64,000 nucleotides of DNA from an uncultured Candidatus Bathyarchaeia archaeon (GCA_964394935.1 CAYMZN010000001.1:55210-119209), one strand, 5' to 3'. Shown: positions 20,206-63,086, numbered from the stretch's first letter. Program-made: numbers and translations. The notes: generated by a model not told the origin, from the sequence alone.

Positions 20206-20211
20206 GAGCAC

Positions 20212-22899: not shown

Positions 22900-22935
22900 T
22901 ACAGAAACTATCTCCAGTCTTCGAGGCGGATTAGA

Positions 22936-25233
22936 TCAGTCTCCTCTTCGAAGCTTGGGCTGTGCGTCCTCGATCCCTTTTTCCGTGATCGCAAAGTATG
23001 TCTCCGATTCTGGAAGGCAAGGTGAGTCTATGATGCGGGCACAACGAAGATTGTTTGAAGCCTTCTTGATCATGATTCGATGGGTCGACGCATGAGCAAG
23101 GATGTTTCCTCCCGCTGGCCTAATGGGGTCTCCGAAGAAAGCTTGAGGGTTTGCTTGGACTTGGTTGGTCAAGACGACGACCAAGTTCAGCGCTTGGGCG
23201 ATCCGCGTGAGCTTGTGCAAATGTGCGTTGAGTTTCTGCTGACGCTCACTAAGATTCTCCCGGCCAATGTATTCGCTCCTGAAGTGTGAAAGCACTGAAT
23301 CAACTACGATGAGTTTGATGTTCTCTTCTTGACAGAGCTTGAAGGCGTGATCAACTGTGAGGATCTGATGATCACTATTGTAAGTGCGTGCGATGAAGAC
23401 TCCTTCAAGGATCTTGTCGGGGTCAAGTGACATCGCCTGCGCAATCTGATGGACGCGCTGAGGAGCAAATGTTCCTTCGCTGTCCAGAAAGAGGACTTTG
23501 CCGTTCAGCCCACCTTGCTGTAGTGGAAGCTGAGTCGTGATGCTGAGCTGCATGCAGATCTGGGAGTTGTGGGTTACGAATCCGTTGACGACGTAATTGT
23601 GGTGCGGATTGACTTCGTAGTCTACCATGTCCACAGGCTCATTCTTCACTTCGACCTTTAGGACCCGCTCCCAAGCTAGGTCGCTCTCGACCAACATGCC
23701 AAGCCTATCTATGATCTGTTGGGCTTCATCTTCGGAGGTGAATCCAGCCTGCTTCATTTGGGCTGTGAATACGCGTATGTTTTGGACGAGTTCTCGGAGG
23801 GTGGTTCGGGTCGGATGCGCTTGACTGGATTGGGCGAGGTAGTTCCTCACCCATCGTCGCCATGCCGGGTTGTCGGAGTTGAAGCCTAAGAGCTTGCCTA
23901 GTCTGTTGAAGGTTGCCATCGGAACGGGAATGATATCAGCTGAGAGGTTCCTTCGTTCGAGACGCCAGTTACGGAATTTGTCGAGGTTGAGGGACCTATC
24001 AGATCCTATCTCAGAAGCGAACCTATAGGCATACTCGCCACTTATCGCTAGAGAGCGGCGTCGCATCCTTGAGTAGATTCCAAGTTTCAGTAGCAGGAAG
24101 CGTAGCTGCTCAAGGAGCGGCTTGTGAACCGAGTAGATCTCGATCTTAGGCGCCTCTTCTTCGGCCCAGCCATCGCCGTCAAAGTATGCTCGAAGTAACC
24201 ATTTGGTTTCTTCAGCGCCTAGACACATTGCTTGTTGCGGCAGAAGCTTTCTGGCGGTCTTGCCCGCCCCAGACACTTTCAGCGTCGGCATGAGCCTTAG
24301 AAGCCATTCTCCTATCTGCACCGAGGAAACGATTAGGTCATTAGGGTGACTCGGTGGCGCGTGCGGCGCGACCCCAAAGGTCTTCTCAAAACACTCGATG
24401 TAAGATCTTTGCAGATCTTCGTCAGTGTTAGTGAAGACTATTGAGCATGACTTCTCCCGCCAATCGATGTAGCCTTCGCTCGCGAGATAACCTATCAACT
24501 TGGCCAATTGGACCGTGCTCTTCTTTGGAAAAATATACTGTCTGCCGTGTTCCAATGAGGGAGTCGGTAAGTCATAGGATTCCTCGACGATTGGCAACCT
24601 TCGAACGACAGCTAGCCACCGCTTCTCCTTCAGATCCTCGGCCTGAATTTCTTCTAACTGCGCCTCGTCATTCAATGTGTAGAACCGGTGTTGGGGGCTA
24701 CAAGTGATCTTGAATCCGCCTGAGGCTTGGATTGCGAACTGCTGCGGTACATTCTGTACGAACTTCCTCACGGGTTTGCCATGAGTGATGTGCTTCATAG
24801 GATCGATCTCGAAAGGTGAATCTGTCATAGAAAGCTCGGAAGCCATCCTCAGGCCACCAGTAGTAGCGATCATGGAATCCTTAGCAACGCATTTGCCGGC
24901 TCCGAATTCTCCTATGAATTCGGTGATGGCTTGAGTTTCAAGACCTCCGCCAAGTAGCTTATTCAGGTTCTCGGAGCCTGTGCTTAGGCGGAGCAGAGAT
25001 TGGCGTCTATCGTAGAGCTGTTTTGCTGTTAGAAGGTCTACATGAATGATTTGACGTGCAGCGCGTACAATCTTGATCGCCGCAGAGGATTCCAACCCTG
25101 CCTTGTCGACGAGTTCCCTGATCGGCGCTACTGCTATCGCTTCGATGGAGTCGAAGCCAGCTTCCTTGAGCTTATTTGCGGTTACTGGGCCGACGCCTTC
25201 TAGGTCCTGAATGTCCTCTAATGTGTGAGACAA
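22936..25233 (-). CDS. radA: DNA repair and recombination protein RadA, containing an intein with LAGLIDADG motifs in the P-loop
   Basis: Exteins total 323 aa: an HhH N-domain, GEFGAGK|...|SQICMQL, Walker B IVVDSV, and a C-terminal ITEKGI. A 442-aa insertion begins with Cys and ends with HN, followed by a Ser at the +1 position. Confidence 0.9.
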   Translation of the reverse strand: MSHTLEDIQDLEGVGPVTANKLKEAGFDSIEAIAVAPIRELVDKAGLESSAAIKIVRAARQIIHVDLLTAKQLYDRRQSLLRLSTGSENLNKLLGGGLETQAITEFIGEFGAGKCVAKDSMIATTGGLRMASELSMTDSPFEIDPMKHITHGKPVRKFVQNVPQQFAIQASGGFKITCSPQHRFYTLNDEAQLEEIQAEDLKEKRWLAVVRRLPIVEESYDLPTPSLEHGRQYIFPKKSTVQLAKLIGYLASEGYIDWREKSCSIVFTNTDEDLQRSYIECFEKTFGVAPHAPPSHPNDLIVSSVQIGEWLLRLMPTLKVSGAGKTARKLLPQQAMCLGAEETKWLLRAYFDGDGWAEEEAPKIEIYSVHKPLLEQLRFLLLKLGIYSRMRRRSLAISGEYAYRFASEIGSDRSLNLDKFRNWRLERRNLSADIIPVPMATFNRLGKLLGFNSDNPAWRRWVRNYLAQSSQAHPTRTTLRELVQNIRVFTAQMKQAGFTSEDEAQQIIDRLGMLVESDLAWERVLKVEVKNEPVDMVDYEVNPHHNYVVNGFVTHNSQICMQLSITTQLPLQQGGLNGKVLFLDSEGTFAPQRVHQIAQAMSLDPDKILEGVFIARTYNSDHQILTVDHAFKLCQEENIKLIVVDSVLSHFRSEYIGRENLSERQQKLNAHLHKLTRIAQALNLVVVLTNQVQANPQAFFGDPIRPAGGNILAHASTHRIMIKKASNNLRCARIIDSPCLPESETYFAITEKGIEDAQPKLRRGD
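23566..24891 (-). mobile_element. RadA intein (Hint domain + LAGLIDADG motifs) inserted at the Walker A P-loop
   Basis: Starts CVAKDSM immediately after GAGK and ends VTHN before SQ. Two LAGLIDADG-type motifs (KLIGYLASEGYID, LRAYFDGDGWAE). Confidence 0.8.
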
Positions 25234-25254
25234 GTGTAATCGAATTGAACGCCA

Positions 25255-31220: not shown

Positions 31221-31355
31221 CGCATCACGCAAGGAATCTACTCAGCACTGTGAGAAACGTCATCTCGGTTTCAGGCAAACTTTAACTGCTCGCGCCGTTT
31301 GACAATGGTGCTTCCGCGAATGAATGAAGATGCATGAACACATAGGTGCCGCAGA

Positions 31356-34094
31356 TTGCCACGGTTGAAAGGATTGCGATCAGCTCTGGGGCCATACATC
31401 GGCCGTGGGGTATTGGCAGAAAGAGTTCGGGCGATTCGCAAGGCTGCTTCCGGGATCTCGCGTGGCCGTGTTCTGGAGATCGGCGTCCTATCGCTGGTGT
31501 TCGTCGTAGCATTGGCCGTCCGGCTTCTTCCTCTGAGATTCGGGTTCTACCTGTCGGAGTTTGACCCGTATCTTCAATGGCGGATGGCTGAGTACATTGT
31601 GAAAAACGGTTTTGTTGCGTGGTTCAGCTGGCATGACACGATGAGCTGGTACCCCTGGGGGATGAATATGGCCCAGGGCAACCTCTACGGAGTAGCCTTC
31701 ACTGTAGCAGCTGTTTACATGTTCCTGCATGCAATTGGTGTGCAAGCAACTGTTTTCGAAGTCACGGTACTGTTTCCAGTAGTCGCAGGCGCCCTCACGT
31801 CGATCGCATGCTACTTCCTCGGCAAGGATCTGTGGGGCCGCGGAGCAGGCCTATTGACTGCCCTCTTTATGGCGCTGAATCCGAGCAATATTAGCCGCAC
31901 AACACTGGGCTTCCTTCGACATGAGCCGCTCGGAATATTCCTGATGGTTCTGGTCTTCATCTTCTTCCTTCGCGCAAATCAGAAGGGACGAAGCTCCAGG
32001 AGCACGATCACATACTCGATCCTTGCAGGCCTCACATTGTTCTACTTGGCGGCAACATGGGCCGCATCATACTATCCAATGGACCTGATCGTCCTCTATG
32101 CAGCAGTCCTTGTCTTGACCGGTAGGTATACACGTCAGCTTCTCTTCTCCTACGCGACGACTTACGGTATCTTCCTGTTCTTGACACCGCTAGCTGTGCC
32201 GAAAACCGGGTTTGGAACACTGACAAGCCTGAGCTTCCTAGTCATCCCAGGCGTCGCGCTTCTCCTACTTGCACGCGAAGCCGGTAGCCAGCTTCCATCT
32301 TGGAGGTCGAGAGCCTACGCCCTTGCTGTTGCATCTGCGGTACTTGTGGGATTGGCGTATGCGCTCGTTACCTTGAAAATAATGGATCTACCTACTGGCA
32401 AGTTCCTGTCAACTCTCAACCCCTTCACGCGCCTTGACATGCCGATCGTCCAGAGCGTATCTGAGCACAGACCAGCGACGTGGGCGTCATTCTTCTACGA
32501 ATACAACACACTCACCTTTCTTGGTCTATTCGGGTTTTTCTTCATAATTCGTCGCCTTCGTGATACGGACATTTTCCTCGTACTGGCGGTCCTCACCTCG
32601 CTTTACTTCTCGGGATCACTCGTGCGACTCACGCTCATACTCGCGCCCGCATTCTCACTCCTAGCAGCAATCGCAACCGTAGAGATGGCCAAACCTGCAG
32701 TTGACATACTTCGCCAAGCGGTCATATTCCCGAAGAGGAGAATCCCTGGCCTCGTCAGGATCGGCAGAGAATTCGGCCTAGCCATGCTCCTAATCTTGAT
32801 AATTGCAATTATCCCTGCTTTCTCGAAAGCAATAGCAGCGGCATATGCGCCAGCAACAATCGTGACATCCAGCATTCCGGCGTTGCCAGCTGAAGGCACG
32901 AAGTACGATGACTGGCTTCAGGCACTTGCTTGGATTCGTGACAATACACCTCGGTCATCCGTGGTCATGGCTTGGTGGGACTATGGATACTGGATGACTG
33001 CACTTGCTGATCGTAGGACCCTAGCTGACAATGGAACACAGAACACGACGCAGATCGCAATGATTGCGCAGATGTTCATGCGAAACGAGACAACGGCCAT
33101 CCCGATGATGCAGAGGTACAATGTCTCTTACGTGACAGTTTTCGTGACGTACGCACGCACACAAGGGCAGAGCAGTCCAAGCTTCCTCGGTGCCGGCGAA
33201 GATGGTAAATGGTACTGGATGGTTCGCATTGCCAATCAGACTAGCTATGGCAACGAAACGATCCTATTTCAGGAGAAGAGAGCCCAGACGGAAGTCACCT
33301 ACTACAGGGTACTGAAGAATGGGGATAAGGTGGTTGCCAACGAGACGATCTCAGCTGGACAGCAGCTCAGAGACAACTCCATCTTGGGATTCATGATGAA
33401 CACAGGTGTGGGAATCTCTCAAGCGACCTCAAACTATTTCGACCGCGTCTTCACATCATCGAACAACTTCGTCCTAGTCTACAAGGTGCTGTATCCGAAG
33501 ACCACGATCGTGACCATCAGCATAGACAAGAACAGGGTGAAGTACGGGGAAAGTGTTCACATAACAGGAACAGTCACGGACGATGAGGGAAACCCCTACA
33601 GAACCGGAACGGTCACACTACAGGACTCGATTCAAGTCGGAGTATGGGATAACGTCGCAGCGGTCAACGTGGTCGACGGCAAGTTCACTTACGATTGGAC
33701 ACCGCCCGCAGGCAACCATTCCGTGCGCGTGTCTTGGAGCGGTACGAAAGGAGAGTCCCTTCCCGCGGTGAGCAGTAGTGTCCAGCTCTTCGTTGAAGCC
33801 AAGACCGTCACATTGGCCATTTCTCTCTCAAACTACAATGTGACCCTTGGAGAGAACGTTACGATCTCGCTGAGATTGTCCGAAAGACTCTCGAATGGCA
33901 CATTCACAATAGAATACAGTACGGACAACGCGACTTGGCTGAATCTTGCAACAGCCGAGCCCAAGAACGGCACTGCGGACTATTTGTGGGAGCCTGCGAA
34001 GGCTGGGACTCTTTACATTCGGGCAAACTACTCAGGATCTGGAAACTTCGGACCCGCCACTAGCGGCGTAGCCGTACTGTACGCGAAGCCATAG
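31356..34094 (+). CDS. aglB: archaeal oligosaccharyltransferase AglB (STT3 family)
   Basis: Multi-TM N-terminal domain, the hallmark WWDYGYWM motif, and a long C-terminal beta-rich region with Ig-like repeats. Confidence 0.85.
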   Translation: MPRLKGLRSALGPYIGRGVLAERVRAIRKAASGISRGRVLEIGVLSLVFVVALAVRLLPLRFGFYLSEFDPYLQWRMAEYIVKNGFVAWFSWHDTMSWYPWGMNMAQGNLYGVAFTVAAVYMFLHAIGVQATVFEVTVLFPVVAGALTSIACYFLGKDLWGRGAGLLTALFMALNPSNISRTTLGFLRHEPLGIFLMVLVFIFFLRANQKGRSSRSTITYSILAGLTLFYLAATWAASYYPMDLIVLYAAVLVLTGRYTRQLLFSYATTYGIFLFLTPLAVPKTGFGTLTSLSFLVIPGVALLLLAREAGSQLPSWRSRAYALAVASAVLVGLAYALVTLKIMDLPTGKFLSTLNPFTRLDMPIVQSVSEHRPATWASFFYEYNTLTFLGLFGFFFIIRRLRDTDIFLVLAVLTSLYFSGSLVRLTLILAPAFSLLAAIATVEMAKPAVDILRQAVIFPKRRIPGLVRIGREFGLAMLLILIIAIIPAFSKAIAAAYAPATIVTSSIPALPAEGTKYDDWLQALAWIRDNTPRSSVVMAWWDYGYWMTALADRRTLADNGTQNTTQIAMIAQMFMRNETTAIPMMQRYNVSYVTVFVTYARTQGQSSPSFLGAGEDGKWYWMVRIANQTSYGNETILFQEKRAQTEVTYYRVLKNGDKVVANETISAGQQLRDNSILGFMMNTGVGISQATSNYFDRVFTSSNNFVLVYKVLYPKTTIVTISIDKNRVKYGESVHITGTVTDDEGNPYRTGTVTLQDSIQVGVWDNVAAVNVVDGKFTYDWTPPAGNHSVRVSWSGTKGESLPAVSSSVQLFVEAKTVTLAISLSNYNVTLGENVTISLRLSERLSNGTFTIEYSTDNATWLNLATAEPKNGTADYLWEPAKAGTLYIRANYSGSGNFGPATSGVAVLYAKP

Positions 34095-41513: not shown

Positions 41514-41592
41514 GCCAGAATTCTGTAGCTTGCTAAAGGCGAACGCCCGAACTAGTGCAATTTTTTAAAGTAATCGATGCATATCGTGCGGC

Positions 41593-43857
41593 ATGCTTCG
41601 TTCTGTTGAGAAGCTAGGCGCCACCATCTTCGATGCCGCCTCTGCTCCACTACGCCTGCAGATCCTTCGTCTCCTCTCTACGAAGGGCGCTTTGCCATAT
41701 ACGGAGATCATGTCATCGCTCAAGTTGGATCCAGTTCGTGACGCCGGGAAGTTCGTCTACCACCTTCGGAGTCTCACCGAGGTAGGCCTGATTAGCTCGG
41801 AAAAACGCACGAAGAAATATGAGATCACCGAACTTGGCGAAATGGTAGTACATTTCGCAAGAGACCTCGAAGAATATGTCGGTGTAAAACGCGGAAAACT
41901 GTTCGTCAGGACGTCCCGGCTTGCGATCGAAGACTTCCACAGGAGCAAGATCGCAAGATCCCTAGTCGTTGAGGCGGGTGTTCCTCAGGAACTTGCAGAT
42001 GAAATAGCCGCCGAGGCAGAAGACCGGCTGATCAAGCTCAGGACCTCCTATCTGACAGCGGCGTTGATTCGTGAGTTCGTCAATGCTATCCTCATCGAGA
42101 AGAAGCTCGAAGAATACAGGCATAAGCTGACACGCGTTGGCATGCCGGTTTACGATGTGACGCAACTTCTCCGCACCACAGGTGAACTCGGCTTGGCAAC
42201 TGACTACGTTCAGAAATCCGCGGGAGCTTCCGTGCTTGGGGAATATGTTTTGCTGGAGTGCCTGCCCCGCGAGATAGCTGATGCCCACATCTCAGGACAA
42301 ATCCACATATGCGATCTCGACAGCTGGCCTCTCAAGCCGACCGAGGTACAGCATGATCTCCGATATTTCCTGAAGAACGGGCTCGTTGGTTTCAAACCGC
42401 CCCAAAGCTTCAACGCTGCACTGACGATGATTCAGAACATCTACCGTCTAGGAAAGGCTGAGGTTTCCGGAGAACAGGGCTTCGATCTCTTCAATGTCTT
42501 TCTGGCACCATATGTCGAGGACACACCTGAGGACACAATCAGAGAGTCACTGGAACTCTTCCTTTCGTCCGTCGCGCAGGATTCTCCGGGAGGCGTCGGT
42601 CAACCTGGACTTTCCATCGGCCTCGAATACGTCGTCCCTGAGTTCTTGGAGAATGTGGAGGCAGTTGGGCCAGGAGGAAGAACGATTGGAGTCTACGGTG
42701 ACTATCGTGAAGAGGCTGGGATAGTCCTGGACGCTCTACTGGAAGCAACTTCACAAGAGGCGCAGATCAACCCGTTGGCCAACCCCCGGCTCATCTTCAA
42801 ACTTCGAGACTCGGTCGAGAAGAACGATGAGGCCCGATGTCATGTCCTGAAGACTCATGAGTTGGCCGCGTCTAGGAGACTGCCGTATATAGCACTGCTT
42901 CGAGATGGCTCACGAGACTGCTACACGGCGACCGGCCTAAGGCTTTCGGACGATTGGAGCAAGCAGTGGGAATCGGACTGCTATAGGACAGGCTCCATGG
43001 CAACGATCTTTCTCAATCTACCGCGGCTGGCCTATGAAGCGCGGAAAGATGAGGATAGGTTGTTCAAGCTGATGAGCGACACAGTTGGATTGACGCTCGA
43101 AGCCTTCAAGATGAAGAGAAAGTTCATGATCGATAGGCTGAAGCAACCTATTCTGCCGCTGCTCTTTGGGTCCGGACAAGGGACGCCCTACTTCCGCGAG
43201 AAAATGGCTGCCTACTCAATAGCGCTTCTTGGGCTGAACGAGGCTTGCCTCGCACATACGGGAAGCGAGTTGAGAAAGGACTCGCTAGCTTTTGGAGAGA
43301 GGATTCTTCAGGAGCTGAAGAAGCAAAGCGAGGCAGCGTCAGAGAGCCTAGGAATGCGTTTTATTGTATCCGAACGACCAGGCGATGATGCAACCTCAAG
43401 ACTTGCAGAGCTTGACGTGGAGCAATATGGCAAGAGCACAGTCGCTGCCCAAGGTGGACGGAATTACCCATTCTACACGGATTTGCCGACTGTACCTTTG
43501 ACCTCAAAGATTCCACTCAACGAGAGACTTGCGATCGAAGGAATGCTGCAGACCGCGATCCTAGGCGGCCACTTGGCTATGATTTCTGTGGACTCCAAAA
43601 CTAGCGCGGAGGCTCTGCTGGCTCTGACGCATGACGCATCGTCAAGCGGGCTCAGGTTCATCACGTATTCTGGGGTCTATTCGTTCTGCAAGAACTGCAA
43701 TCGAATCATCGATGGTTTGGTTTCGAGTTGCAGTTCATGCGGGTCGGACAACGTTACACAGTACGGGCGTTCATCGTCCACTTACATTCCACTCGCGTTG
43801 TGGCCGGAAGGGAAGAGGCGAGCGATCGAGAAGAGAGCCGTATACTCACTGTCCTAG
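41593..43857 (+). CDS. wHTH + ATP-cone + anaerobic (class III) ribonucleotide reductase NrdD-like protein; glycyl-radical glycine apparently replaced
   Basis: N-terminal ArsR-like winged helix, then an ATP-cone (KLFVRTSRLAIEDFHRSKIARSL..), then a large NrdD-like body. The C-terminus is CKNCN..(x12)..CSSCGSDN....GRSSSTYIPLALWPEGKRRAIEKR, which parallels the NrdD Zn-ribbon + RVCGYLG..NAGKQEEVKRR tail but has S/T where the radical Gly belongs. Confidence 0.55.
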   Translation: MLRSVEKLGATIFDAASAPLRLQILRLLSTKGALPYTEIMSSLKLDPVRDAGKFVYHLRSLTEVGLISSEKRTKKYEITELGEMVVHFARDLEEYVGVKRGKLFVRTSRLAIEDFHRSKIARSLVVEAGVPQELADEIAAEAEDRLIKLRTSYLTAALIREFVNAILIEKKLEEYRHKLTRVGMPVYDVTQLLRTTGELGLATDYVQKSAGASVLGEYVLLECLPREIADAHISGQIHICDLDSWPLKPTEVQHDLRYFLKNGLVGFKPPQSFNAALTMIQNIYRLGKAEVSGEQGFDLFNVFLAPYVEDTPEDTIRESLELFLSSVAQDSPGGVGQPGLSIGLEYVVPEFLENVEAVGPGGRTIGVYGDYREEAGIVLDALLEATSQEAQINPLANPRLIFKLRDSVEKNDEARCHVLKTHELAASRRLPYIALLRDGSRDCYTATGLRLSDDWSKQWESDCYRTGSMATIFLNLPRLAYEARKDEDRLFKLMSDTVGLTLEAFKMKRKFMIDRLKQPILPLLFGSGQGTPYFREKMAAYSIALLGLNEACLAHTGSELRKDSLAFGERILQELKKQSEAASESLGMRFIVSERPGDDATSRLAELDVEQYGKSTVAAQGGRNYPFYTDLPTVPLTSKIPLNERLAIEGMLQTAILGGHLAMISVDSKTSAEALLALTHDASSSGLRFITYSGVYSFCKNCNRIIDGLVSSCSSCGSDNVTQYGRSSSTYIPLALWPEGKRRAIEKRAVYSLS

Positions 43858-52523: not shown

Positions 52524-53435
52524 ATGAACCTGCAAGAAAGCGCACGGGCGTACATAGCCTCTAGGCTTCAGGAGGTAGGCACACTCGACAAATTGGCTGA
52601 AGAGATGCCTGGCCCTCGCCGCGGAAACGGATGGGAGTCCTCCAAGATTGATGAGGCCGTGATCAGGGTTATCCCTCAGTCTCTGGACAAACTTGCCAGA
52701 AAAGCAATTAGACCAGGGATTTCTCGAGCGATTGTTGACCTTTTCCGACCAAGGTACGTGACATCAAGGATCGTGGGAGCGCCGACCCTGGTCTATTTTC
52801 CTCTATGGTACGTGAAGGGGTACCATGAATGCTTCTACCTGAGAGACGCAAATTACGAAATTCCAGTGGACAGGGATGTGGTGGCCGTAGAGGTCGACGG
52901 AGAGACCCGTGACTTGATGATCGAAGAGGAGGAGAGCAAGATCGTTCCGGAAGCATTCAGGCGCAGATTGAAACGATTCGCCGGACTCTTCACAGGTCAA
53001 AGGAGATACTTCAACCTCAGTGATGCGATCGAACTGGCCATCAGATATGAACGCGCTGAAATGTATGTCACTTCAGACGGTCGTGAAGGTCAAGTACTAG
53101 AGGAGGCGCTGCCAAAGAACTGGAGAACCCAACGGATATTCGATGTTGCATATCTCAATATTCAAGGGGCGATCACAAAGATCGCTGCGTCAAAGGAGAC
53201 CAAGGAGGGAGTCGTGGAGAAGTTCAGAGGAAAGATCGTGAAGATGCCTGAGAACCCAAAGCAGGTCCTGAGCAACACATTTCAGATTGAGGAACTCACG
53301 CAGTACTACATCCCGTACGTACATATTCCAGTGTTGCGTCGTGAAAGACTTGATCATGTCATAATCAACGCAGCATCCGCTGAAATACCTGATGAGAAGA
53401 CCGCCAGCTATGTGAAGCGCCAACTGGATGTTTAG
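52524..53435 (+). CDS. hypothetical protein
   Basis: ORF only. Confidence 0.3.
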   Translation: MNLQESARAYIASRLQEVGTLDKLAEEMPGPRRGNGWESSKIDEAVIRVIPQSLDKLARKAIRPGISRAIVDLFRPRYVTSRIVGAPTLVYFPLWYVKGYHECFYLRDANYEIPVDRDVVAVEVDGETRDLMIEEEESKIVPEAFRRRLKRFAGLFTGQRRYFNLSDAIELAIRYERAEMYVTSDGREGQVLEEALPKNWRTQRIFDVAYLNIQGAITKIAASKETKEGVVEKFRGKIVKMPENPKQVLSNTFQIEELTQYYIPYVHIPVLRRERLDHVIINAASAEIPDEKTASYVKRQLDV

Positions 53436-53505
53436 CTCACAAAGCGGTCCAAGCTCATCATAACCTCTTGTGAATAAGCGAAATGGTCTTGCCGGTTCGC
53501 CTTAG

Positions 53506-54147
53506 ATGATGGTGAAGCAGTACTTGGCGGCGGAGATCAAGGCCGCGAAGTTGTTCTCGAATACTTTTACACCATTCAGTCTGGCGGCTATCGTCTCGAT
53601 CGTGTTCTCTTGGTTCTTACCGATTGGAATTGGACCATCTATGAGTCCCTTGTGCTCGGCGTTGATTGTCACGCTGTGTGTGTTGCCATTCGTGCCCGTC
53701 GCCTACAGCGCAAGAAGCGGGAGAACTGATCTGGATGTTTCAGATGTCAGGAAACGCGGGCCACTCTATCTGCCGGGGCTGGCAAGCTACGCCGGTGGGG
53801 CAGCAATCTTCTCAATGCTGAATAACAAGGTCATGTTAGTCATCGCTCTTGCGTACCTCTGCGTTGCCTCACTGACCTTGCTGATCACGCTTGCATGGAA
53901 GATCAGCGCCCACACCGCTGGGATCGCCGGCCCGACTACCGCACTTGTTTTTGTGTTGGGCACCTGGATTCTGCCGCTGTACTTGCTCTCGATTCTCATG
54001 GTTTGGTCCAGAGCCAAACTGTGCGCGCACACGGTCACCCGAGGAGTTGCGGGGTTGGTCGTCACGGTCGCGGTAACGAGTGTAGCATACTTCCCATTCT
54101 ATCTGCAAAAAAGGTTAGTCCTACTACTTTTCCCACACGCTCAATGA
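53506..54147 (+). CDS. integral membrane protein, possibly PAP2-like phosphatase
   Basis: Six predicted TM helices. SAH and SRAKLCAH segments loosely resemble PAP2 motifs 2 and 3. Confidence 0.4.
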   Translation: MMVKQYLAAEIKAAKLFSNTFTPFSLAAIVSIVFSWFLPIGIGPSMSPLCSALIVTLCVLPFVPVAYSARSGRTDLDVSDVRKRGPLYLPGLASYAGGAAIFSMLNNKVMLVIALAYLCVASLTLLITLAWKISAHTAGIAGPTTALVFVLGTWILPLYLLSILMVWSRAKLCAHTVTRGVAGLVVTVAVTSVAYFPFYLQKRLVLLLFPHAQ

Positions 54148-54194: not shown

Positions 54195-54632
54195 CTAAGT
54201 GATTTGGACGTGGTCGATTTGGAAGTATCTCTTCGCTAGCATACGGGTCTTGTCGATCGTTCTTCCGTTCTTTCCTATTGCCATGGCTTTGTCTTTGGGG
54301 TCTACCTCTATGACTACGATCTTCTTCTCGGGGCGTTCGGTCAGGCGGATCTGCTTGATCTTTGCGGGAGCGAGGGAGTTCTTGATCAGACCCTCCACGC
54401 TGTCAGATGCCTCCACGATCTCGATCGGCTTACCGGTCATCCGACGAAGCGTGTTGATGTTCTTGCCTGCCTTGCCTATCGCTAGTCCCATCTGACCTGA
54501 CTTTGCGACAAATATGATTCGATCGCAGGAAGGGTCGATTAGGCAATCGTTCGCGGTTGCACCCGTGATACTTTCGAATAGGGCGATGTAGCGCATCTCA
54601 TCGCTCCCTAGGCGGATCTTTGCTGCAGACAT
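54195..54632 (-). CDS. nusA: transcription termination/antitermination factor NusA (archaeal two-KH form)
   Basis: Two KH domains with GKAGKNI and GKNGRTI GxxG loops. Confidence 0.85.
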   Translation of the reverse strand: MSAAKIRLGSDEMRYIALFESITGATANDCLIDPSCDRIIFVAKSGQMGLAIGKAGKNINTLRRMTGKPIEIVEASDSVEGLIKNSLAPAKIKQIRLTERPEKKIVVIEVDPKDKAMAIGKNGRTIDKTRMLAKRYFQIDHVQIT

Positions 54633-54634
54633 CT

Positions 54635-54934
54635 CTAGGCTTCAACCAACTTCAGGATTTCAGAGTCTCCGGGTTCCTTCACTGTCAGGGCGGCAACTAG
54701 GAATGGCTTTTCGCATGCGGCTGCTAGGTCGACGCTCGTGCCCGAGTAGACATAGACGGGGACCTCCGAGAGCTTCGCGTTGTAGAGTATGCTAGACTTG
54801 TGGGGCTCTGGACAGTTTGAGGCGATGACGATTAGCCGAGCTTTTCCGGTCTTGGCCGCGTCCGTCGCTTCCTTCCAGCCCAACTCAACTTTGCCGGTCT
54901 TGACGACCATACTGATCTGCTTGTTCAGGTCCAT
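54635..54934 (-). CDS. rpl30e: 50S ribosomal protein L30e
   Basis: 99 aa in an L30e pattern (TGKVELGWKE, LIVIASNCP). Confidence 0.9.
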   Translation of the reverse strand: MDLNKQISMVVKTGKVELGWKEATDAAKTGKARLIVIASNCPEPHKSSILYNAKLSEVPVYVYSGTSVDLAAACEKPFLVAALTVKEPGDSEILKLVEA

Positions 54935-57900
54935 TACTTCTCCTTCCCCGACATCGCCATGAAGACCTCGATAAGGCCTGTGCCCATTGGCACCTGCTGC
55001 CCAACGATGACGTTCTCGGCGACGCCGCGGAGTTGATCCTTGGTTCCGCGCACAGCCGCATCGACAATCGTTGGGATGGTGATTTCAAAAGCTGCCTTTG
55101 CCAGGGTGCTCGCCTTCTCGCCGCTGACGCCATGCCTACCCACTTGGAGGACTTCTCCTGACGCGGTCATCGCATCGGCAACAAGCATCACGTGCCTTAT
55201 GTCGACGTCGAGCCCTTGCTCATCGAGTACGCTCTTCGCCTCTTTGATTATCACGTTGCGTGCAGCCTCGATTCCGAGCACGGCCGCTACCTCATGCATG
55301 TTGTTGGAGATCGTTCTGGTTGGGTCAACCCCTGGCGTCGACAAAGCCAGTTCAAGGTTGGATCCCTCTGTTCTGATAATCCACTCACCGTTCTCCTCCA
55401 TTACTAGGGCACGTCTCACTGCTGGGATTCCTTTCACGTGCATCCCGGAGACACGGGATTCGAGGCGTCTGAATTGTGGGATGTCCATGTCATGGGTGGT
55501 GATCTCAATTTCATTCTTGTCAACCTTTGCGTCTGCGTTGTGAATCTGAATCGCTGTCTTGATGTCCCTCATTGTGACGGACTTTTCGCGCATCGCTGCG
55601 GTGTCAAGCTTGACAACGATCCTCATCTTGGTAATGTCCGACTCGATGCTAGACGATATGTCTCCAAGTGTCGTATGCGTCAGTAGGGTGGCGACCTCCT
55701 CCGCCTTCTCCTTGCTGGTTCTGTGTTTCTCGTCCAAGTATACGGTCATTGTTGGCGTCGACGGAACCTTTCTCGCATCCACGATCTCGATCAACCTCGG
55801 AAGGCCAAGGGTGACGTTTTGTTCTCTCACTCCAGCAAAGTGGAATGTTCTTAATGTCATCTGTGTACCAGGCTCACCAATCGACTGAGCCGAAACGATG
55901 CCGGCCGCTTCTCCCGGTTCAATCAGTGACCTACCATAATTCTCGACGGCCTGACGAACAGCCTCATCAACAGCACGGCGTGATAGCTTGGCCTTCAGTA
56001 GGTTTCGCTTCAACTCATCCGCGAGAAGCGGGGTGAGTCTGCCAATGACTTCTCGCATCTTCTGCTCGACATACTTGCTGCTTGCCTTGACGCCTTTTTC
56101 CGCTGCAAGCCTCACGCGTTCGACCAAGCGTTCTGAGTTGACGGCTTTGCCGTGGTCGCTCTTCGCCGTATCTACGCCATCTTCGCCGTACCTGAACTGA
56201 ATGATGTCTCCGCGGGAATCTCGGACTGTTGAGTCGTATTCCACCCTGAGATGCTCAAGGGCATTGATGAGCCTTCTCTGCATGTATCCGCTCTGCTGAG
56301 TTCGAACCGCCGTGTCAACTAGTCCTTCACGTCCTCCCATAGCATGAAAGAAGAACTCGATTGGGCTAAGGCCGTCCCGGTATGAGGAGTAGACGAAGCC
56401 TCTCGCCTCAGGGCCTGCGTCGCCTGGCCGGAAGAAAGAGAGTACGCGGTCCCTGTATCCCCTCCTGATTCTTTGACCGCGAATCGATTGCTGACCCACT
56501 GAGGCTATCATCTGTGCGACGTTCAGTGAGGATCCTCTTGCTCCGGTTCTAGTCATGATCACGCCGCTGTTAGTTTCGTCCAAGTATTCGTCTGCGTACT
56601 CACCTGCGACATCGCGAGCTTTGGACAGCTCATCCATTATGCGGATCTCAAGTGATTCTATGAGTGATTGCCCTGGAAGCCGCTCAAGCGTTCCCTGATT
56701 GTAGCTTTCGATGAGTGCGTAGACGCGCTCCTCAGCCTTGCGGATGACCTTGTCTATCTTCTCCCCGACGCTGGCAGGCACATCGAGCTCTTTGATGGAG
56801 TATGAGAAGCCCTTCATCAATACGAACCGGTCAAGGAGCTTGGCGATGTGATTAAGAAACTCTCGTCCAGTTTCGGATCCCTGATCTTTAACAATTCGGT
56901 GGAAGAGACTCTCGGACCGCTCGGCGCCGATTGAATTCTTGTCGATCGCGCCCTCTTCGAGTTTGCCGTTGCGTATTATCACGTGCTCCTTATCGTCCTT
57001 TGTCACCATGCTCGATCTTGCTGCGAAGCTGAAGCCTCGTGGCAAGAAGAGGCTGAAGATCTGCTTCCCAGTCCACAGCTCGACGGGACGCTTCGTCACT
57101 GGTTCTGGAATGTCGCCCGTGTAGCCGGCAGTTGTCAAGAGCCTGCATACCTCGTCCTTCGTGAGCACGGTCGATTTGCGTGTCAGCAGATATGCGGCAG
57201 TTAGGAGGTCGGTCTTGGCACCGATGATTGGTCCCCCGTAGCGAGGTGAAAGTATCTGATCTTGGACCTGCATCAACAGTCTTGCTTCTGTTCGTGCCTC
57301 CTCACTCTGTGGGACATGAAGGTTCATTTCGTCTCCGTCGAAGTCAGCGTTGTATGGCGGGCACACGCAGGGGTTCAGCCTGAAAGTCTTGTACGGCAAG
57401 ACTCTGACCGTATGAGCCATGATTGACATTCTGTGAAGTGAGGGCTGTCTGTTGAAGAGAACGATGTCACCGTCTCTGATGTGGCGTTCGACAACGAAGC
57501 CGGGCTCTATCGCGTCAGCTAGACTGTCTCGCTCTGTCACGAACTCGAGTCTAACGCGTCTTTGGTCGGGACGCACGATATAGAGAGCGCCCGGGTACTG
57601 GTCCGGGCCGTTTCGGATGAGCCTCCGCATCTCGTCAATGTTCCATTGCGTAACGCGTTCTGGTATTGTCAGTCGTGCGGCAATGTCCACGGGCACCCCA
57701 ACCTCGCTGATGTCGAGGTTGGGGTCAGGGGAGATCACGGTTCTTGCAGAGAAGTCCACCCGCTTACCAGACAGGTTGCCTCTGAATCTGCCTTCCTTTC
57801 CTTTGAGGCGTTGACTAATCGTCCTTAGCGCTCTCCCAGACCGATGCCGGGCGGGGGGCAATCCTGAGACTTCATTGTCGAAATATGTCGTGACGTGGTA

Positions 57901-58725
57901 TTGGAGAAGGTCATGCAGCTCCTGAATGATGTTAACCGGGACTCCGGACTCAAGTGCCTCGCGGAGTTTCTGGTTGATTCGGATAATGTCGACGAGCTTG
58001 TGAGTCAGATCGTCTTCTGATCTGATACCTGACTCGAGCGTGATAGAGGGCCGCACAGTCACAGGCGGCACCGGCAGAACTTGAAGCACCATCCATTCAG
58101 GTCTTGCAGCGGATGGATCCATCCCGAGAATGCGAAGATCGTCATCGGGGATGCGCTCAAGCATCTCCCTAATTGCGCTCGGGGTCAGGCGAGCTCCAGT
58201 CTCGTCTATGAACGTCGTGGGTTTCTGATGCTCGATGGTGTGTTGACGTGTCCCGCAGTGTGGGCATTCTTGAACCTTCTTGGCCCCCTTCATAATGTCC
58301 TCGAAGAACTGTGTGGGTACCTCGTTGAGACGTTTCTTCTCTTCCGCTATCTTGGCATTGTAGTTCTGGATCTTCTCATTTGAGAGAAGGAGTCTGCCGC
58401 AGTTGCGGCAGGTGACGGAAAGGAGCTTGTGTATCAGTTTGGCGAATGCGACGTGAATTACAGGCTCAGCAAGCTCTATGTGTCCGAAATGGCCTGGGCA
58501 ACTTATGGCAGTGTTTCCACACGTCTTGCACTTCTGTCTGGGCTCGAGCGTTCCTAGTCTTCCATCCATGAGACCTGAAACTATGGGGACTCCGTCTTCG
58601 TCATACGTATCCGCTGTCTGCACTTCAACAGCTGAGAGACGCCGTATCTCATTCGGGGAGAGGAGTGAGAACCTGATGCTCTCGATGATCTTGGTTGCTT
58701 CTTCAATCATCGCCATCCTACGCAC
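54934..58725 (-). CDS. rpoA: DNA-directed RNA polymerase subunit A, with A' and A'' fused in one ORF
   Basis: Contains the A' catalytic NADFDGDEMN and the trigger-loop/bridge regions. There is no stop or frame change where archaea normally split A' and A'' (..FRYGEDGVDTAKSDHG...KMREVIGRL..GEPGTQMTLRTFHFAG continues in-frame). 1263 aa. Confidence 0.9.
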   Translation of the reverse strand: MRRMAMIEEATKIIESIRFSLLSPNEIRRLSAVEVQTADTYDEDGVPIVSGLMDGRLGTLEPRQKCKTCGNTAISCPGHFGHIELAEPVIHVAFAKLIHKLLSVTCRNCGRLLLSNEKIQNYNAKIAEEKKRLNEVPTQFFEDIMKGAKKVQECPHCGTRQHTIEHQKPTTFIDETGARLTPSAIREMLERIPDDDLRILGMDPSAARPEWMVLQVLPVPPVTVRPSITLESGIRSEDDLTHKLVDIIRINQKLREALESGVPVNIIQELHDLLQYHVTTYFDNEVSGLPPARHRSGRALRTISQRLKGKEGRFRGNLSGKRVDFSARTVISPDPNLDISEVGVPVDIAARLTIPERVTQWNIDEMRRLIRNGPDQYPGALYIVRPDQRRVRLEFVTERDSLADAIEPGFVVERHIRDGDIVLFNRQPSLHRMSIMAHTVRVLPYKTFRLNPCVCPPYNADFDGDEMNLHVPQSEEARTEARLLMQVQDQILSPRYGGPIIGAKTDLLTAAYLLTRKSTVLTKDEVCRLLTTAGYTGDIPEPVTKRPVELWTGKQIFSLFLPRGFSFAARSSMVTKDDKEHVIIRNGKLEEGAIDKNSIGAERSESLFHRIVKDQGSETGREFLNHIAKLLDRFVLMKGFSYSIKELDVPASVGEKIDKVIRKAEERVYALIESYNQGTLERLPGQSLIESLEIRIMDELSKARDVAGEYADEYLDETNSGVIMTRTGARGSSLNVAQMIASVGQQSIRGQRIRRGYRDRVLSFFRPGDAGPEARGFVYSSYRDGLSPIEFFFHAMGGREGLVDTAVRTQQSGYMQRRLINALEHLRVEYDSTVRDSRGDIIQFRYGEDGVDTAKSDHGKAVNSERLVERVRLAAEKGVKASSKYVEQKMREVIGRLTPLLADELKRNLLKAKLSRRAVDEAVRQAVENYGRSLIEPGEAAGIVSAQSIGEPGTQMTLRTFHFAGVREQNVTLGLPRLIEIVDARKVPSTPTMTVYLDEKHRTSKEKAEEVATLLTHTTLGDISSSIESDITKMRIVVKLDTAAMREKSVTMRDIKTAIQIHNADAKVDKNEIEITTHDMDIPQFRRLESRVSGMHVKGIPAVRRALVMEENGEWIIRTEGSNLELALSTPGVDPTRTISNNMHEVAAVLGIEAARNVIIKEAKSVLDEQGLDVDIRHVMLVADAMTASGEVLQVGRHGVSGEKASTLAKAAFEITIPTIVDAAVRGTKDQLRGVAENVIVGQQVPMGTGLIEVFMAMSGKEK

Positions 58726-61700
58726 GCTCCGAAATATTGAGTCTAGAAGCTACGCCGAGCGCCATCAACTCCTGAAGAAGCAGCTTGAAGGCATAGGACA
58801 GTGAAACTGGGGAGATGACTGCTCGTTCGCCGCAGATTCGGCACACGTACTTGTTCTGTTTGATGTCGTGATAGGCGAGTAGGCCGCATATCTCGCAGAC
58901 CATTACAGTGTACTTGTCGGATTCCTCAAGCAGCCTGTCCCTAAGTAGCGCAGACGCCCCGTGTCCGATTAGGCAGTCACGCTCCATTTCGCCGAACCTG
59001 AGTCCTCCACCGCGGGCTCTTCCTTCGGTGGGTTGCCTGGTCAACATCTGCACTTGGCCGCGGGCTCGTGCATGCATCTTGTCCGCGACCATGTGGTGGA
59101 GCTTCTGGTAGTAGACCACGCCCACGTAGACATCGGCGGTGAACTTCTTCCCGTCAATTCCGTTGTAGAACACCTCACTTCCACTGTGAGTGAAACCGAG
59201 CTTGAGCAACGCGTTACGAAGTTGTTCAGGACGCTCGTTACTGAACGGGGTTCCGTCCACCGGCTCTCCTCTGAGCGAGCCAACTTTTCCTGCCAATGAT
59301 TCAACGAATTGTCCGATAGTCATTCGGGACGGAAATGCGTGAGGGTTAATGATGATGTCGGGGACTACGCCGTCTTCCGTGAAAGGCATGTCTTGTTGAG
59401 GAACGAGAAGCCCGATGACTCCCTTCTGACCGTGCCTCGACGCGAACTTGTCTCCCAGTTCAGGAATCCGCATGTCTCTGACTTTCACCTTGACGAGCTT
59501 GCTACCTTCGATCGATTCCGTTACGAAGATCGTGTCAACCACCCCGACCTCTGAAGGGCGCACGCCAACAGATGAATCGCGTTTGGTAGGCCCCTTGACT
59601 TCAAATTCCCGGTACTCCTCTAGGAACCTCGGAGGGCTTGTCCTTCCTACGAGGACTGTGTTGCCGGAAACATCCGCCTCGGCCGAGATGATTCCGTCTT
59701 CCTCGAGGAGTCGATAGTACCTGTCTCCTCTGTATCCCCTGGTTCCTGCTTCAGGAATCTCGAACTTGTCGCGGAGTCCTCCCAGGTATTGTCTGCATTC
59801 AGCCTCGTAGATCCGGAAGAATGTAGATCGCCCCAGTCCACGGTCAACCGACGAGCGGTTGACGACGATGGCGTCTTCCATGTTGTAGCCTTGGAATGAA
59901 AGGACGGCGACGACGCAGTTCTGACCTGCGGGCCTGCCGTCATAGTTTATGGTCTCCATCGGTTTCGTTCTGACGAGGGGCAATTGTGGGTAGTGCAGAA
60001 GATGCGCTCGGGAGTCGACTCGGTTGAAGAAGTTTGTGCAGGACACTCCAAGTGCCTGCTTCGCCATCGCGGACTCGTACGCGTTCCTCGGCGACTGATT
60101 GTGCTCAGAATATGGTATGATTGAGGCGCAAATGCCTAGCATCGTGTAAGCGGCATGCTCCAAATGCGTCGTGTCCTTCGAGATCTTCGAAACGTCGAGC
60201 GCCACTAGTGCGCTCTCCTCCTCGTCCGAGTCTAGGTATTCGATGATCCCCTTCTCGACGAGCTCTTCCCATCTCATCTCGCCTCTCTGAACGGCTTCGA
60301 TCTGCTCGCGCGTCAGCTTGGGCACCCCGTTTTCCACTATGATGAGAGGTCTTCGAACTCTGCCATTGTCACAGTTAACGTAGACACATCCTCGTGCGTT
60401 CTCTTTCTCCGGCGGGAAGTAGGCAGCGTTTACTTCGTAGCTTATCTCGCCTGCTCTACGCATTCGTACGAGTTCGTCGACGAGTTCCTTCGGCGCACTG
60501 GAAATGCCAGCTATTATCCCGTCAACGATGACTTTGGTGCCAGCGGCCACCGTCTTGCTATCTGCTTGCTCAATTGGAACGACGCCCATTCGTCTTAGCT
60601 TGAGGACGAACTCTCTCGAGTCGGTTCCAATTGATAACGTGGAGGATAGCGCTAGATTCTTCACGAGACCACAGTTCGATCCTTCGGGGGTCTCGTTGGG
60701 GCACAGTCTACCCCAGTGGGTCGGATGCAGATCTCGTGCTTCCAAGTTAGGTTGGCTTCTACTCAATGGCGACTGCAGACGCCTAAGGTGACTTAGAGTC
60801 GAGGAGTAATTCGTTCGGTCGAGAAGCTGAGTAACTCCGACTCTCCCTCTAACCCAGTTTCCAGTGGCAACCGCATGTTGAATCCGCTCTGTGATTATCC
60901 CGGGTCTGATTGAGTTGGTGATTGAAAGCTCCTGATGTCGCCTGATCGTGATCCGTTCGAGTTGATACTTCAAGTCGCGAATGAGATTTCGGAATGAGAT
61001 CCTGAAGAGATCGGCCATCAAGGCTCCCGCAAGCTTGAGTCGCTTGTTCGAGTAGTGGTCTTTGTCGTCCGGCGCACGTCTGCCAAGCTTCAGCTCGATG
61101 AGCCTCGTCCCGATCTCTGCGAGGAAGTATGCCTTCTCTTTCCTTTCTGCGGGTGTCCGTCCCATGTGGGGGAGAAAATTACGATCAACTGTGGTCTCTG
61201 CCTTCTTGGCGCGGTAATCTTCCACTTGCCCGGGGGCCAGCCGGTTCCCAATATACAGGAGCGCGTCCTTCGTGGTCAGGATCCCCTGCGCCTTCTCGAA
61301 TGAACCTTCCAGCTGGTTTTGGATCGTCTCCTCCTCAGAAATCAATTCAGCGATCTTCAAGTCTTCTTGGACGCCGAGAGCCTTCGTCAAGACAACCAAG
61401 GGGACCTCGGCAGGAACCCCTGGAACCATTGCATAGATCGCCCCATCAGCCTTCAGGGTGACCTCAGTCCGCGCCCGAAAGCCCAGGGTCGTCGAGAAGA
61501 TCTTCGCCTTGTAGACAGGGTTGACTCCGGTCTTCTCCACGTCGACGAGGATCTTGTTCGGCGCTAGGTCCTCGAGTGCAACCACAACGCGCTCAGCACC
61601 GTTGACGATGAAGTATCCACCCGGATCGATCGGGTCCTCGCCGATACTGGTCATCTCATCGGGGGTCAGCCGAGAAAGCGGGCATATCTTCGATCGAAGC

Positions 61701-62044
61701 ATCACCGGGAAGTCCCCGATGTAGACGATCTCGGTCTGACCTTCGCGCTCGCCGATTACCGGCGTCATCTCAAGATGTAATGGTGCCGCGTAGGTAAGGT
61801 TGCGCACCCGCGCCTCAGTCGGGTATACTGGTCTTTCGGATCCGTCGACCTCTGTCACTCTTGGTGTACCGATCTCAATTTTCCCGAGCTTGATCTTCAA
61901 CGGGTACTCTTCGATCTCTATCGGGATCGAGCCGACCTCATCGATGATGGCTTGCAGCCCTGTATCGATGAACTCGTTGTAGGAGTCGATGTGCTGTCTG
62001 ACGAGACCCTTCTCTCGGAAGAATTCTTTGATCAAACCCCACAT
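58718..62044 (-). CDS. rpoB: DNA-directed RNA polymerase subunit B (unsplit)
   Basis: 1108 aa, a single ORF covering both the B'' and B' homology regions (GDKFASRHGQKGV and a C-terminal Zn ribbon). Confidence 0.95.
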   Translation of the reverse strand: MWGLIKEFFREKGLVRQHIDSYNEFIDTGLQAIIDEVGSIPIEIEEYPLKIKLGKIEIGTPRVTEVDGSERPVYPTEARVRNLTYAAPLHLEMTPVIGEREGQTEIVYIGDFPVMLRSKICPLSRLTPDEMTSIGEDPIDPGGYFIVNGAERVVVALEDLAPNKILVDVEKTGVNPVYKAKIFSTTLGFRARTEVTLKADGAIYAMVPGVPAEVPLVVLTKALGVQEDLKIAELISEEETIQNQLEGSFEKAQGILTTKDALLYIGNRLAPGQVEDYRAKKAETTVDRNFLPHMGRTPAERKEKAYFLAEIGTRLIELKLGRRAPDDKDHYSNKRLKLAGALMADLFRISFRNLIRDLKYQLERITIRRHQELSITNSIRPGIITERIQHAVATGNWVRGRVGVTQLLDRTNYSSTLSHLRRLQSPLSRSQPNLEARDLHPTHWGRLCPNETPEGSNCGLVKNLALSSTLSIGTDSREFVLKLRRMGVVPIEQADSKTVAAGTKVIVDGIIAGISSAPKELVDELVRMRRAGEISYEVNAAYFPPEKENARGCVYVNCDNGRVRRPLIIVENGVPKLTREQIEAVQRGEMRWEELVEKGIIEYLDSDEEESALVALDVSKISKDTTHLEHAAYTMLGICASIIPYSEHNQSPRNAYESAMAKQALGVSCTNFFNRVDSRAHLLHYPQLPLVRTKPMETINYDGRPAGQNCVVAVLSFQGYNMEDAIVVNRSSVDRGLGRSTFFRIYEAECRQYLGGLRDKFEIPEAGTRGYRGDRYYRLLEEDGIISAEADVSGNTVLVGRTSPPRFLEEYREFEVKGPTKRDSSVGVRPSEVGVVDTIFVTESIEGSKLVKVKVRDMRIPELGDKFASRHGQKGVIGLLVPQQDMPFTEDGVVPDIIINPHAFPSRMTIGQFVESLAGKVGSLRGEPVDGTPFSNERPEQLRNALLKLGFTHSGSEVFYNGIDGKKFTADVYVGVVYYQKLHHMVADKMHARARGQVQMLTRQPTEGRARGGGLRFGEMERDCLIGHGASALLRDRLLEESDKYTVMVCEICGLLAYHDIKQNKYVCRICGERAVISPVSLSYAFKLLLQELMALGVASRLNISERA

Positions 62045-62051
62045 CTGGGGT

Positions 62052-62342
62052 TCAACTTGAGTGATCAGACTTGCTTCCTCCAGCTGAACTCTCGATGACG
62101 TACCTATAGACGACGACCTGACCCGCAGTGGGACTCCGGCGGCTGATTTTGATGATATCCCATGGTTTTGCTCCTATCTGTCTCGCGGCTGGATCATCAG
62201 CTCTCAGGTAGGGCAGTTGATGTGCCTTGATGTGTAGGCGTTCCAGTAGCTGCTCCGCCTCACGCTTTGGCACAATCTCATGCTTCGGTACGAGTTGATG
62301 TTCAAAAACGTCTATCGCCTTCCTCCTCTCCTCATCCTTCAA
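62052..62342 (-). CDS. rpoH: DNA-directed RNA polymerase subunit H (Rpb5 homolog)
   Basis: HQLVPKHEIV hallmark. Start appears to be TTG because there is no in-frame ATG. Confidence 0.8.
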   Translation of the reverse strand: MKDEERRKAIDVFEHQLVPKHEIVPKREAEQLLERLHIKAHQLPYLRADDPAARQIGAKPWDIIKISRRSPTAGQVVVYRYVIESSAGGSKSDHSS

Positions 62343-62382
62343 GTGATCGTCTCTCCGATATCCGAACCCTCATTAGGCCCCG

Positions 62383-62392
62383 AGAAATAGGA
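62383..62392 (-). promoter_or_regulatory. candidate TATA-like box upstream of the rpoH-rpoB-rpoA operon
   Basis: Minus-strand CCTATTTCTC lies about 45-50 nt upstream of the rpoH TTG start. No other obvious A/T block sits in the 340-bp intergenic region. Confidence 0.2.
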
Positions 62393-62681
62393 ACCCTAGC
62401 GAAACTCTCCCTTAGCACAAGGCGACGCGCTAATAAGCATTATGCGGTCGAATCGTCAATTTGCAGTGCAACATGTCCCTTCGGGTGTCGGGACCATATC
62501 GATATCAGACACCTTAGATTTAGGCCAAGAATCCGTCCAACCGAGAGTCCAGTCGGCAATCTTCAGAAGGTGCCAGCTGTAGACTTGGAATGCTCAATGC
62601 AACAAGGTCCTCTACGGGGAGGATCCAGCCTGAGGAAACTTTTCCTTACAGCTCTGTCGAAGCATCACAATCCTCGTTCCG

Positions 62682-63086
62682 TCATGTCTCTTCGAGTTCT
62701 TCTGGCATCTTGACGCCCAAGTGGGAATAGATTGCCGTCTTCAAGACCTTCAGCCCGAGAAGGGCACACTCCATTCTCGCGGGTCCCGGGTCTGTTCCTA
62801 GAAGACCGATGATGTCTTTCTTTCCAAGTTTCCTAATCTCGGAGATTGGCTTCCCTTTCGAGAGTTCTGTCAGCATAGAGGCGGATGCTATGCTTATCGC
62901 ACATCCTTGTCCTCGAAACTTGACATCCTCGATCTTGTTCCCGTCAAGTTTTAGCTGCATCTCAATCGTGTCGCCGCATATGACGCTCGCTTCCCTTGCC
63001 CGAGCATTTGCGTCTGGAAGGCCGCCATAGTTTCTGGGATGTCTGTAGTGGTCAAGGATCGTCTCCTTATAGACGTCGACGCTCAT
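62682..63086 (-). CDS. Fe-S cluster assembly scaffold protein (NifU/IscU/SufU family)
   Basis: Conserved Cys ligands (CGD, GCAIS) and the HYRHPRN N-terminus. Confidence 0.75.
   Translation of the reverse strand: MSVDVYKETILDHYRHPRNYGGLPDANARAREASVICGDTIEMQLKLDGNKIEDVKFRGQGCAISIASASMLTELSKGKPISEIRKLGKKDIIGLLGTDPGPARMECALLGLKVLKTAIYSHLGVKMPEELEET

Follow-up and report, generated by a model that had tools for sequence, protein, structure and literature searches.

We analyzed the RNA polymerase operon encoded in a 64,000-nt window (the whole stretch of DNA under study; GCA_964394935.1, CAYMZN010000001.1:55210–119209) of an uncultured Candidatus Bathyarchaeia archaeon. Coordinates are positions in this window; the operon genes, located at 54195–62342, are all on the minus strand. 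The largest RNA polymerase subunit, Rpo1, was encoded there by a single open reading frame (ORF), rpoA (54934–58725, 1263 codons from GTG 58725), comprising both the A' and A'' parts. The second largest subunit, Rpo2, was also encoded by one unsplit gene, rpoB (58718–62044, 1108 aa). We estimate at about 95% the probability that this is the standard transcription-machinery operon of Bathyarchaeia, with the single rpoA typical of the lineage, rather than an error or a fusion peculiar to this genome; we found no evidence against this reading.

Five Rpb1 Pfam domains were present in the rpoA product in the order PF04997, PF00623, PF04983, PF05000, and PF04998. Residues 12–867 corresponded to the A' equivalog TIGR02390 (1331 bits, cutoff of 1042) and residues 897–1256 to the A'' equivalog TIGR02389 (458 bits, cutoff of 421), so that Rpb1 domains 1–5 and both models fall within one ORF. 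Thus, one polypeptide would hold the catalytic Mg-binding motif NADFDGD at aa 459 as well as, at aa 950, the trigger-loop region GEPGTQMTLRTFH. The rpoB product contained seven Rpb2 Pfam domains, in order. Its residues 1–1107 matched the full-length subunit B model NF006335 (1685 bits, cutoff of 1402), and the B'' model NF007175 and the B' model TIGR03670 covered residues 2–493 and 505–1107 of the same ORF. These data agree with the original prediction, made from the sequence of the window, which had described a single 1263-aa rpoA ORF with A' and A'' next to an unsplit rpoB, the latter matched end to end by NF006335. Since the frame is open and conserved, the rpoA product is predicted to be a single polypeptide; the largest subunit would be made as one chain of about 1260 aa and the second largest as one chain of 1108 aa. 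By homology, the RNA polymerase of the window is expected to function as other archaeal RNA polymerases do. Automatic annotation names the fused proteins of ~1260 aa "subunit A'", whereby the architecture is hidden.

The distribution of the unsplit genes was surveyed by scanning a set with a single genome for each prokaryotic species, which yielded 80 loci (68 complete loci of fused lineages, 6 cut by contig ends, and 6 split controls), each checked by stop-to-stop ORFs. A single rpoA ORF of 1238–1332 codons was found in 68/68 complete loci of Bathyarchaeia, Nitrososphaeria, Aigarchaeota, or 'Geothermarchaeota', and rpoB, wherever the contig included it, was unsplit (about 1080–1180 codons) in 67/68 of these loci. 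The split controls came out as two rpoA ORFs in Hadarchaeota (880 and 394 codons), Hodarchaeota (902 and 403 codons), and Methanosarcinales (889 and 385 codons), indicating that the stop-to-stop method is able to detect splits; in the Methanosarcinales locus L070, rpoB was split as well (577 and 616 codons). Among proteins, the best 120 matches from a database of 5.8 billion sequences were 1148–1320 aa long, and 119 of them spanned at least 90% of the RpoA query, the remaining one spanning 68%. Four clusters at 92–94% identity comprised 162 member sequences. In one locus, belonging to a metagenome-assembled genome (MAG) obtained from long reads (L058, 2448–5997), rpoB was called as a pair of overlapping ORFs (458 and 751 codons), with rpoA reduced to 1238 codons; this looks like the result of indel errors and not like a genuine split.

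The closest genome matches of RpoA were Bathyarchaeia MAGs with 93% (L001) and 78% (L040) amino acid identity and more than 30 further ones with 60–65%, followed by Nitrososphaeria with 53–58%. By similarity to these MAGs, as named by their depositors, the source of the window is a Bathyarchaeia archaeon. Neither rRNA or tRNA nor any other Rfam family was detected in the whole window at Rfam gathering thresholds and by a tRNA scan; thus, no RNA marker helps to place the lineage. Several records carrying bacterial or methanogen names (L002, L068, L078, P0035, and P0105; named as Methylomirabilota, Methanocella, Aquificota, Acidoferrales, and [Eubacterium] cellulosolvens) encoded fused RpoA of the Bathyarchaeia type. 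Because these genes are 60–78% identical to rpoA of the window, the records are most likely mis-binned contigs or cases of public mislabelling.

The fused RpoA combined with unsplit RpoB is a hallmark already known and published since about 2008–2011 (PMC3082918, PMC4084955, PMC5484517, PMC3852633). Nunoura et al. (Table 1, PMC3082918) list 'fusion' of RpoA and RpoB for Thaumarchaeota, Korarchaeota, and Caldiarchaeum and 'split' for Crenarchaeota and Euryarchaeota; Zhalnina et al. (PMC4084955) report a single rpoA in all Thaumarchaeota, Spang et al. (PMC3852633) count the unsplit rpoA among the thaumarchaeal 'ancestral' features, and Da Cunha et al. 2017 (PMC5484517) mention 'fused ... Bathyarchaea sequences' of RpoA. 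The single rpoA is thus a state common to Bathyarchaeia, their ammonia-oxidizing relatives Nitrososphaeria (Thaumarchaeota), Aigarchaeota, and Korarchaeota. The combination had been called uncommon in the original prediction, which is true of the classically studied archaea but not of Bathyarchaeia, Nitrososphaeria, and Aigarchaeota, of which every complete locus examined possesses it. Its proposed use as a marker of the source lineage is borne out: it correctly indicates the clade as Bathyarchaeia, neighbors of Nitrososphaeria. The window adds one further Bathyarchaeia example of a signature that serves as a quick lineage indicator and has already been used in arguments on archaeal rooting and the origin of eukaryotes.

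Within Bathyarchaeia, unsplit RpoA proteins are alike: a single ORF of about 1260–1290 aa, 60–94% identity, and an adjacent unsplit rpoB. RpoA of the window is 7–15 residues shorter than most of its relatives there (1263 vs. 1270–1278 aa), with no other difference of substance. One gene for A' and A'' with an unsplit rpoB immediately upstream is also known in Nitrososphaeria (Nitrosopumilus, Cenarchaeum, Nitrososphaera; PMC4084955, PMC3852633), Aigarchaeota (Caldiarchaeum), and Korarchaeota (PMC3082918), the last being outside the loci examined here. Nitrososphaeria and Aigarchaeota loci were colinear with RpoA of the window throughout at 50–58% identity; they belong to a different class, and their junction segment (aa about 870–900) is unlike the Bathyarchaeia sequence. 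Rpo1N and Rpo1C of Saccharolobus/Sulfolobus, Thermococcus, and Pyrococcus (e.g., 2WAQ, 2PMZ, 4QIW, 8CRO) have the same domains in the same order, but as two genes and two polypeptides, whereas the window has one. Among archaeal RNA polymerases, structures have been solved only for these split-Rpo1 enzymes, and a structure search with RpoA of the window returned no unsplit archaeal Rpo1. Eukaryotic Rpb1 and RPC1 (E of about 1e-270 to 1e-293) resemble RpoA of the window in having the bridge helix and trigger loop in a single polypeptide; however, they are 1390–1984 aa long, with extra insertions and, in Rpb1, a C-terminal repeat domain, all of which are absent from the archaeal protein.

The junction between the two parts was located by aligning RpoA of the window and its fused relatives with the concatenated A' and A'' of the split Hadarchaeota, Hodarchaeota, and Methanosarcinales loci. 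The site homologous to the gene boundary of the split lineages was LAAEKGV (aa 873–879, about 56089–56109 on the minus strand): the final A' residue aligned to aa 873–878 and the first A'' residue to aa 877–879 (RLAAEK/GVKASS). In the solved chains of Saccharolobus, residues 4–875 of A' (880 aa) aligned to query residues 12–871, and residues 7–10 to 387–390 of A'' to query residues 883–1256; the 11 query residues in between were accounted for by the unaligned tails of the two chains (11–14 residues). In these alignments, fused RpoA is colinear with A' plus A'' and there is, therefore, no added linker; the short linker suggested in the original prediction was not confirmed, no residues having been added. 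Where other archaea have a stop, a spacer of 0–12 nt, and a new start, rpoA of the window would instead be read through a segment of about aa 870–900, flanked on one side by the conserved end of A' and on the other by the conserved A'' core ahead of the trigger loop. This segment is poorly conserved, and its sequence is not kept between classes.

The single gene may also have arisen by secondary re-fusion, i.e., from an ancestor with split A' and A'', as in Euryarchaeota and Thermoprotei, in which the two genes merged later by loss of the stop codon. The positions of the split in Methanosarcinales, Hadarchaeota, Hodarchaeota, and Saccharolobus agree to within about 6 residues, and such a common position in Euryarchaeota, Asgard, and Thermoprotei suggests a single old split. 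The spacers are tiny, and in L070 an in-frame ATG comes immediately after the A' stop (AAT TGA ATG), so that one point mutation would fuse the genes; very few mutations are thus needed to interconvert the split and fused states. Secondary fusion has, moreover, been reported for Pacearchaeota (PMC5484517). However, the fused state is common to Bathyarchaeia, Nitrososphaeria, Aigarchaeota, and, reportedly, Korarchaeota (PMC3082918), and with a state shared this broadly, any fusion would have to date far back. Da Cunha et al. (PMC5484517) argue that the most parsimonious history is one split that took place once the fused lineages had diverged, and no stop, spacer, or start relic was recognizable at aa 873–879 in the alignment with split loci or in the comparison with L001. 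We therefore regard re-fusion as possible, though somewhat improbable. It concerns history only and leaves the identity of the gene unchanged; if it were true, the split/fused character would be unusable for rooting the archaeal tree near Bathyarchaeia, Nitrososphaeria, and Korarchaeota.

The standard operon with one rpoA product could also be accompanied by dual expression, in which a separate A''-like polypeptide would be produced by internal initiation at Met890 besides the full-length protein. The original prediction had pointed to a methionine codon within KMREV at the place where A'' would normally start. KMREV is indeed present (aa 889–893), and its in-frame ATG (56056–56058, minus strand) is near the beginning of the A''-homologous part; the position, however, is not that of the A'' start, since the homologous split point is 11–17 residues upstream of Met890. 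This Met is not conserved: L002 and L040 carry Ile at its position, and other Bathyarchaeia have Ile, Val, or Leu there. It is the sole Met within aa 841–940, and the sequence upstream of it, GTCGAGCAGAAG, lacks a GGAGG-like ribosome-binding motif. Met890 was rejected on these grounds both as a relic of the A'' start and as an internal start; by alignment it is an ordinary internal Met, and dual expression is very unlikely.

At the junction, the frame of rpoA was open across aa 873–879, without a stop, frameshift, or restart. Compared with L001, the whole gene had 551 synonymous and 92 non-synonymous codon differences, and the segment of aa 860–900 had 18 and 9, respectively, with no gaps. Mostly synonymous differences together with a gapless junction in independent assemblies indicate that the continuous frame is probably translated and under selection. 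Another alternative, that A' and A'' are in reality encoded by separate genes and a stop or frameshift at their boundary was lost in the consensus, is hardly credible: consensus errors do occur in MAGs, as in rpoB of L058, and nothing else was found in its favor, but the identical open frame recurs in 68 independently assembled loci and in the best 120 database proteins. An assembly artefact at the A'/A'' junction is thus effectively excluded, as far as comparative data allow, and the comparison with relatives, which the original prediction had proposed as a check, supported no hidden stop or frameshift.

The operon comprised rpoH, rpoB, rpoA, and the genes of ribosomal protein L30e and an archaeal NusA-like KH-domain protein, adjacent to each other in this order on one strand, as in the str/L30e cluster. 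The first gene, rpoH (RNA polymerase subunit H/Rpo5; 62052–62342, 96 codons from TTG), matched Pfam RNA_pol_Rpb5_C (2.5e-28) and NCBIfam NF007129 (108 bits, cutoff of 83), and its stop was located 7 nt upstream of the rpoB ATG. The first possible start of rpoA in a mechanical ORF call is GTG 58725, 8 nt within rpoB. ATG 58716, which has GGAG ahead of it and is separated from the rpoB stop (TAG) by 1 nt, is probably the true start, giving a protein of 1260 aa; the closest homologues are 1261 aa long. The rpoA stop and the L30e ATG overlap by 1 nt (TAATG). L30e (54635–54934, 99 aa) matched NF002172 with 117 bits (cutoff of 77), and its stop lay 2 nt ahead of the ATG of the NusA-like gene, the final one of the cluster (54195–54632, 145 aa; TIGR01952, 168 bits, cutoff of 74). 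Tight packing of the five genes (1-nt overlap, gaps of 1–7 nt) suggests that they are probably co-transcribed and translationally coupled.

In many archaea, the cluster continues with S12-S7-EF genes (PMC10833476). This part was absent after nusA in the window: the adjoining ORFs are on the opposite strand (two plus-strand ORFs of 303 and 213 aa, 52524–54147, directly after nusA, with no Pfam match), and the cluster is thus truncated. On the other side, a non-coding gap of 339 nt (62343–62681), with no Rfam hit, separates rpoH from a nifU-like gene and is overlapped by a plus-strand ORF of 148 aa (62267–62713) without a Pfam match. We failed to find a convincing archaeal TATA box or B recognition element (BRE) upstream of rpoH in this gap, which was inspected by eye only.

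The window also contained a gene of family-B DNA polymerase (PolB; 19352–21618, minus strand), interrupted at 20182–20213 by 32 nt. This insert is probably an mRNA intron in the coding region, as sequence conservation and the predicted fold suggest. PolB appears as two ORFs in different frames: the first (ORF1, 20212–21618) ends with RQAALKWILVCS followed by a stop, and the downstream frame begins with VGYLGFKNARFGKI and has no start codon until 20044. The break falls within the conserved polymerase motif around KWILVCSFGYLGF. Excision of the piece from 20213 down to 20182 (AGGUGCUCGAUGAGUAAAUCGAAACCGAGCAG) gives the junction CUGCUCAU/UCGGCUAC and a PolB of 744 aa without a stop, which reads KWILVCSFGYLGF, like the uninterrupted homologues of 723–770 aa. 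The same interruption was present in an independent ENA contig (99.93% identical, 5 single-nucleotide polymorphisms in 7.4 kb), which excludes an assembly error.

When metagenomes were scanned with the N-terminal fragment of PolB, 80 loci were obtained. An insert of 20–33 nt was found at exactly the same site in a total of 41 loci, the window included (55–100% amino acid identity to ORF1), with 34 distinct insert sequences over these 41 loci (window; L081–L127 and L161). Three relatives at 59% identity had no insert and read TCA TTC GGN TAY. Cutting after UGCUCAU and before UYGG gave TCA TTY GGN TAY (S-F-G-Y) in 41/41 loci whatever the intron length, and excision always restored KWILVCS-FGYLGF; excision at the bulges described below thus restores a continuous conserved frame. 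Boundaries at 20183–20214 were tried and rejected: they gave S-V-G-Y and no canonical bulge–helix–bulge (BHB) motif, and the relatives placed the boundaries 1 nt over. In all 41 loci an insert is kept that varies in sequence and length but always restores identical codons; on this ground, explanations as an intein-deletion scar, a pseudogene, or an assembly error were rejected as well. In several PolB homologues, an intein was located 4 nt upstream of the insert site (KWILVC-intein-SFGYLGF).

By definition, a BHB motif at the exon–intron boundaries consists of a 4-bp helix between two bulges of 3 nt each, which lie on opposite strands (PMC6379350). A central helix of 4 bp, GCUC/GAGC (or GGGC, GAGU), was paired 4/4 in 34/34 variants of the PolB insert. 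The bulges were on opposite strands, bulge 1 being A-U/A and bulge 2 A-(A, G, or C)/U (AUA and AGU in the window; the slash marks the cut). A cut after the second bulge nucleotide is the placement known from tRNA splicing. The intron hairpin closed directly beside the motif in 31/34 variants, and the exon–exon helix UAGUC/GGCUA adjoined it and, in the 32-nt class, was paired in 99% of cells. In the same class, 91.9% of cells were paired vs. 18–45% with slid partners, and compensatory changes were found at three hairpin pairs. Across insert length classes, the hairpin sequence was wholly different, with the helix and bulges retained.

BHB introns in archaeal mRNAs have been reported only for cbf5 of Crenarchaeota and the 5' UTR of Haloferax HVO_1309 (Schwarz et al. 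2020, PMC7714728; for the cbf5 mRNA intron, see also PMC2738675). No BHB intron of Bathyarchaeota, and none located in a DNA polymerase gene, came up in full-text literature searches. If the conserved PolB insert is an intron, it would be only the second family of coding-region mRNA introns described in Archaea, after cbf5, and would lie in the gene of a DNA polymerase of the replicative-type B family. This observation matters more than the unsplit rpoA. Such genes are broken up or shortened by gene callers: PolB was output as a protein of 468 aa (P0121) and a fragment of 230 aa.

Several other genes of the window were noted. RadA/Rad51 recombinase (22936–25254, minus strand, 772 codons) contained an intein that carries a LAGLIDADG homing-endonuclease domain, with Pfam Intein_splicing and LAGLIDADG_3 located between the two Rad51 halves; the next ORF after it (21874–22935) was a weaker Rad51-family paralogue. 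An ORF of 404 codons (17492–18706, minus strand) encoded a formaldehyde-activating enzyme (Fae) domain fused to a domain of the OMP-decarboxylase/hexulose-phosphate-synthase family. On the plus strand, the anaerobic ribonucleotide reductase NrdD (41569–43857) had an extra N-terminal DUF7347 domain, and the AglB/STT3 oligosaccharyltransferase (31338–34094) carried C-terminal bacterial Ig-like (Big_3_5) repeats.

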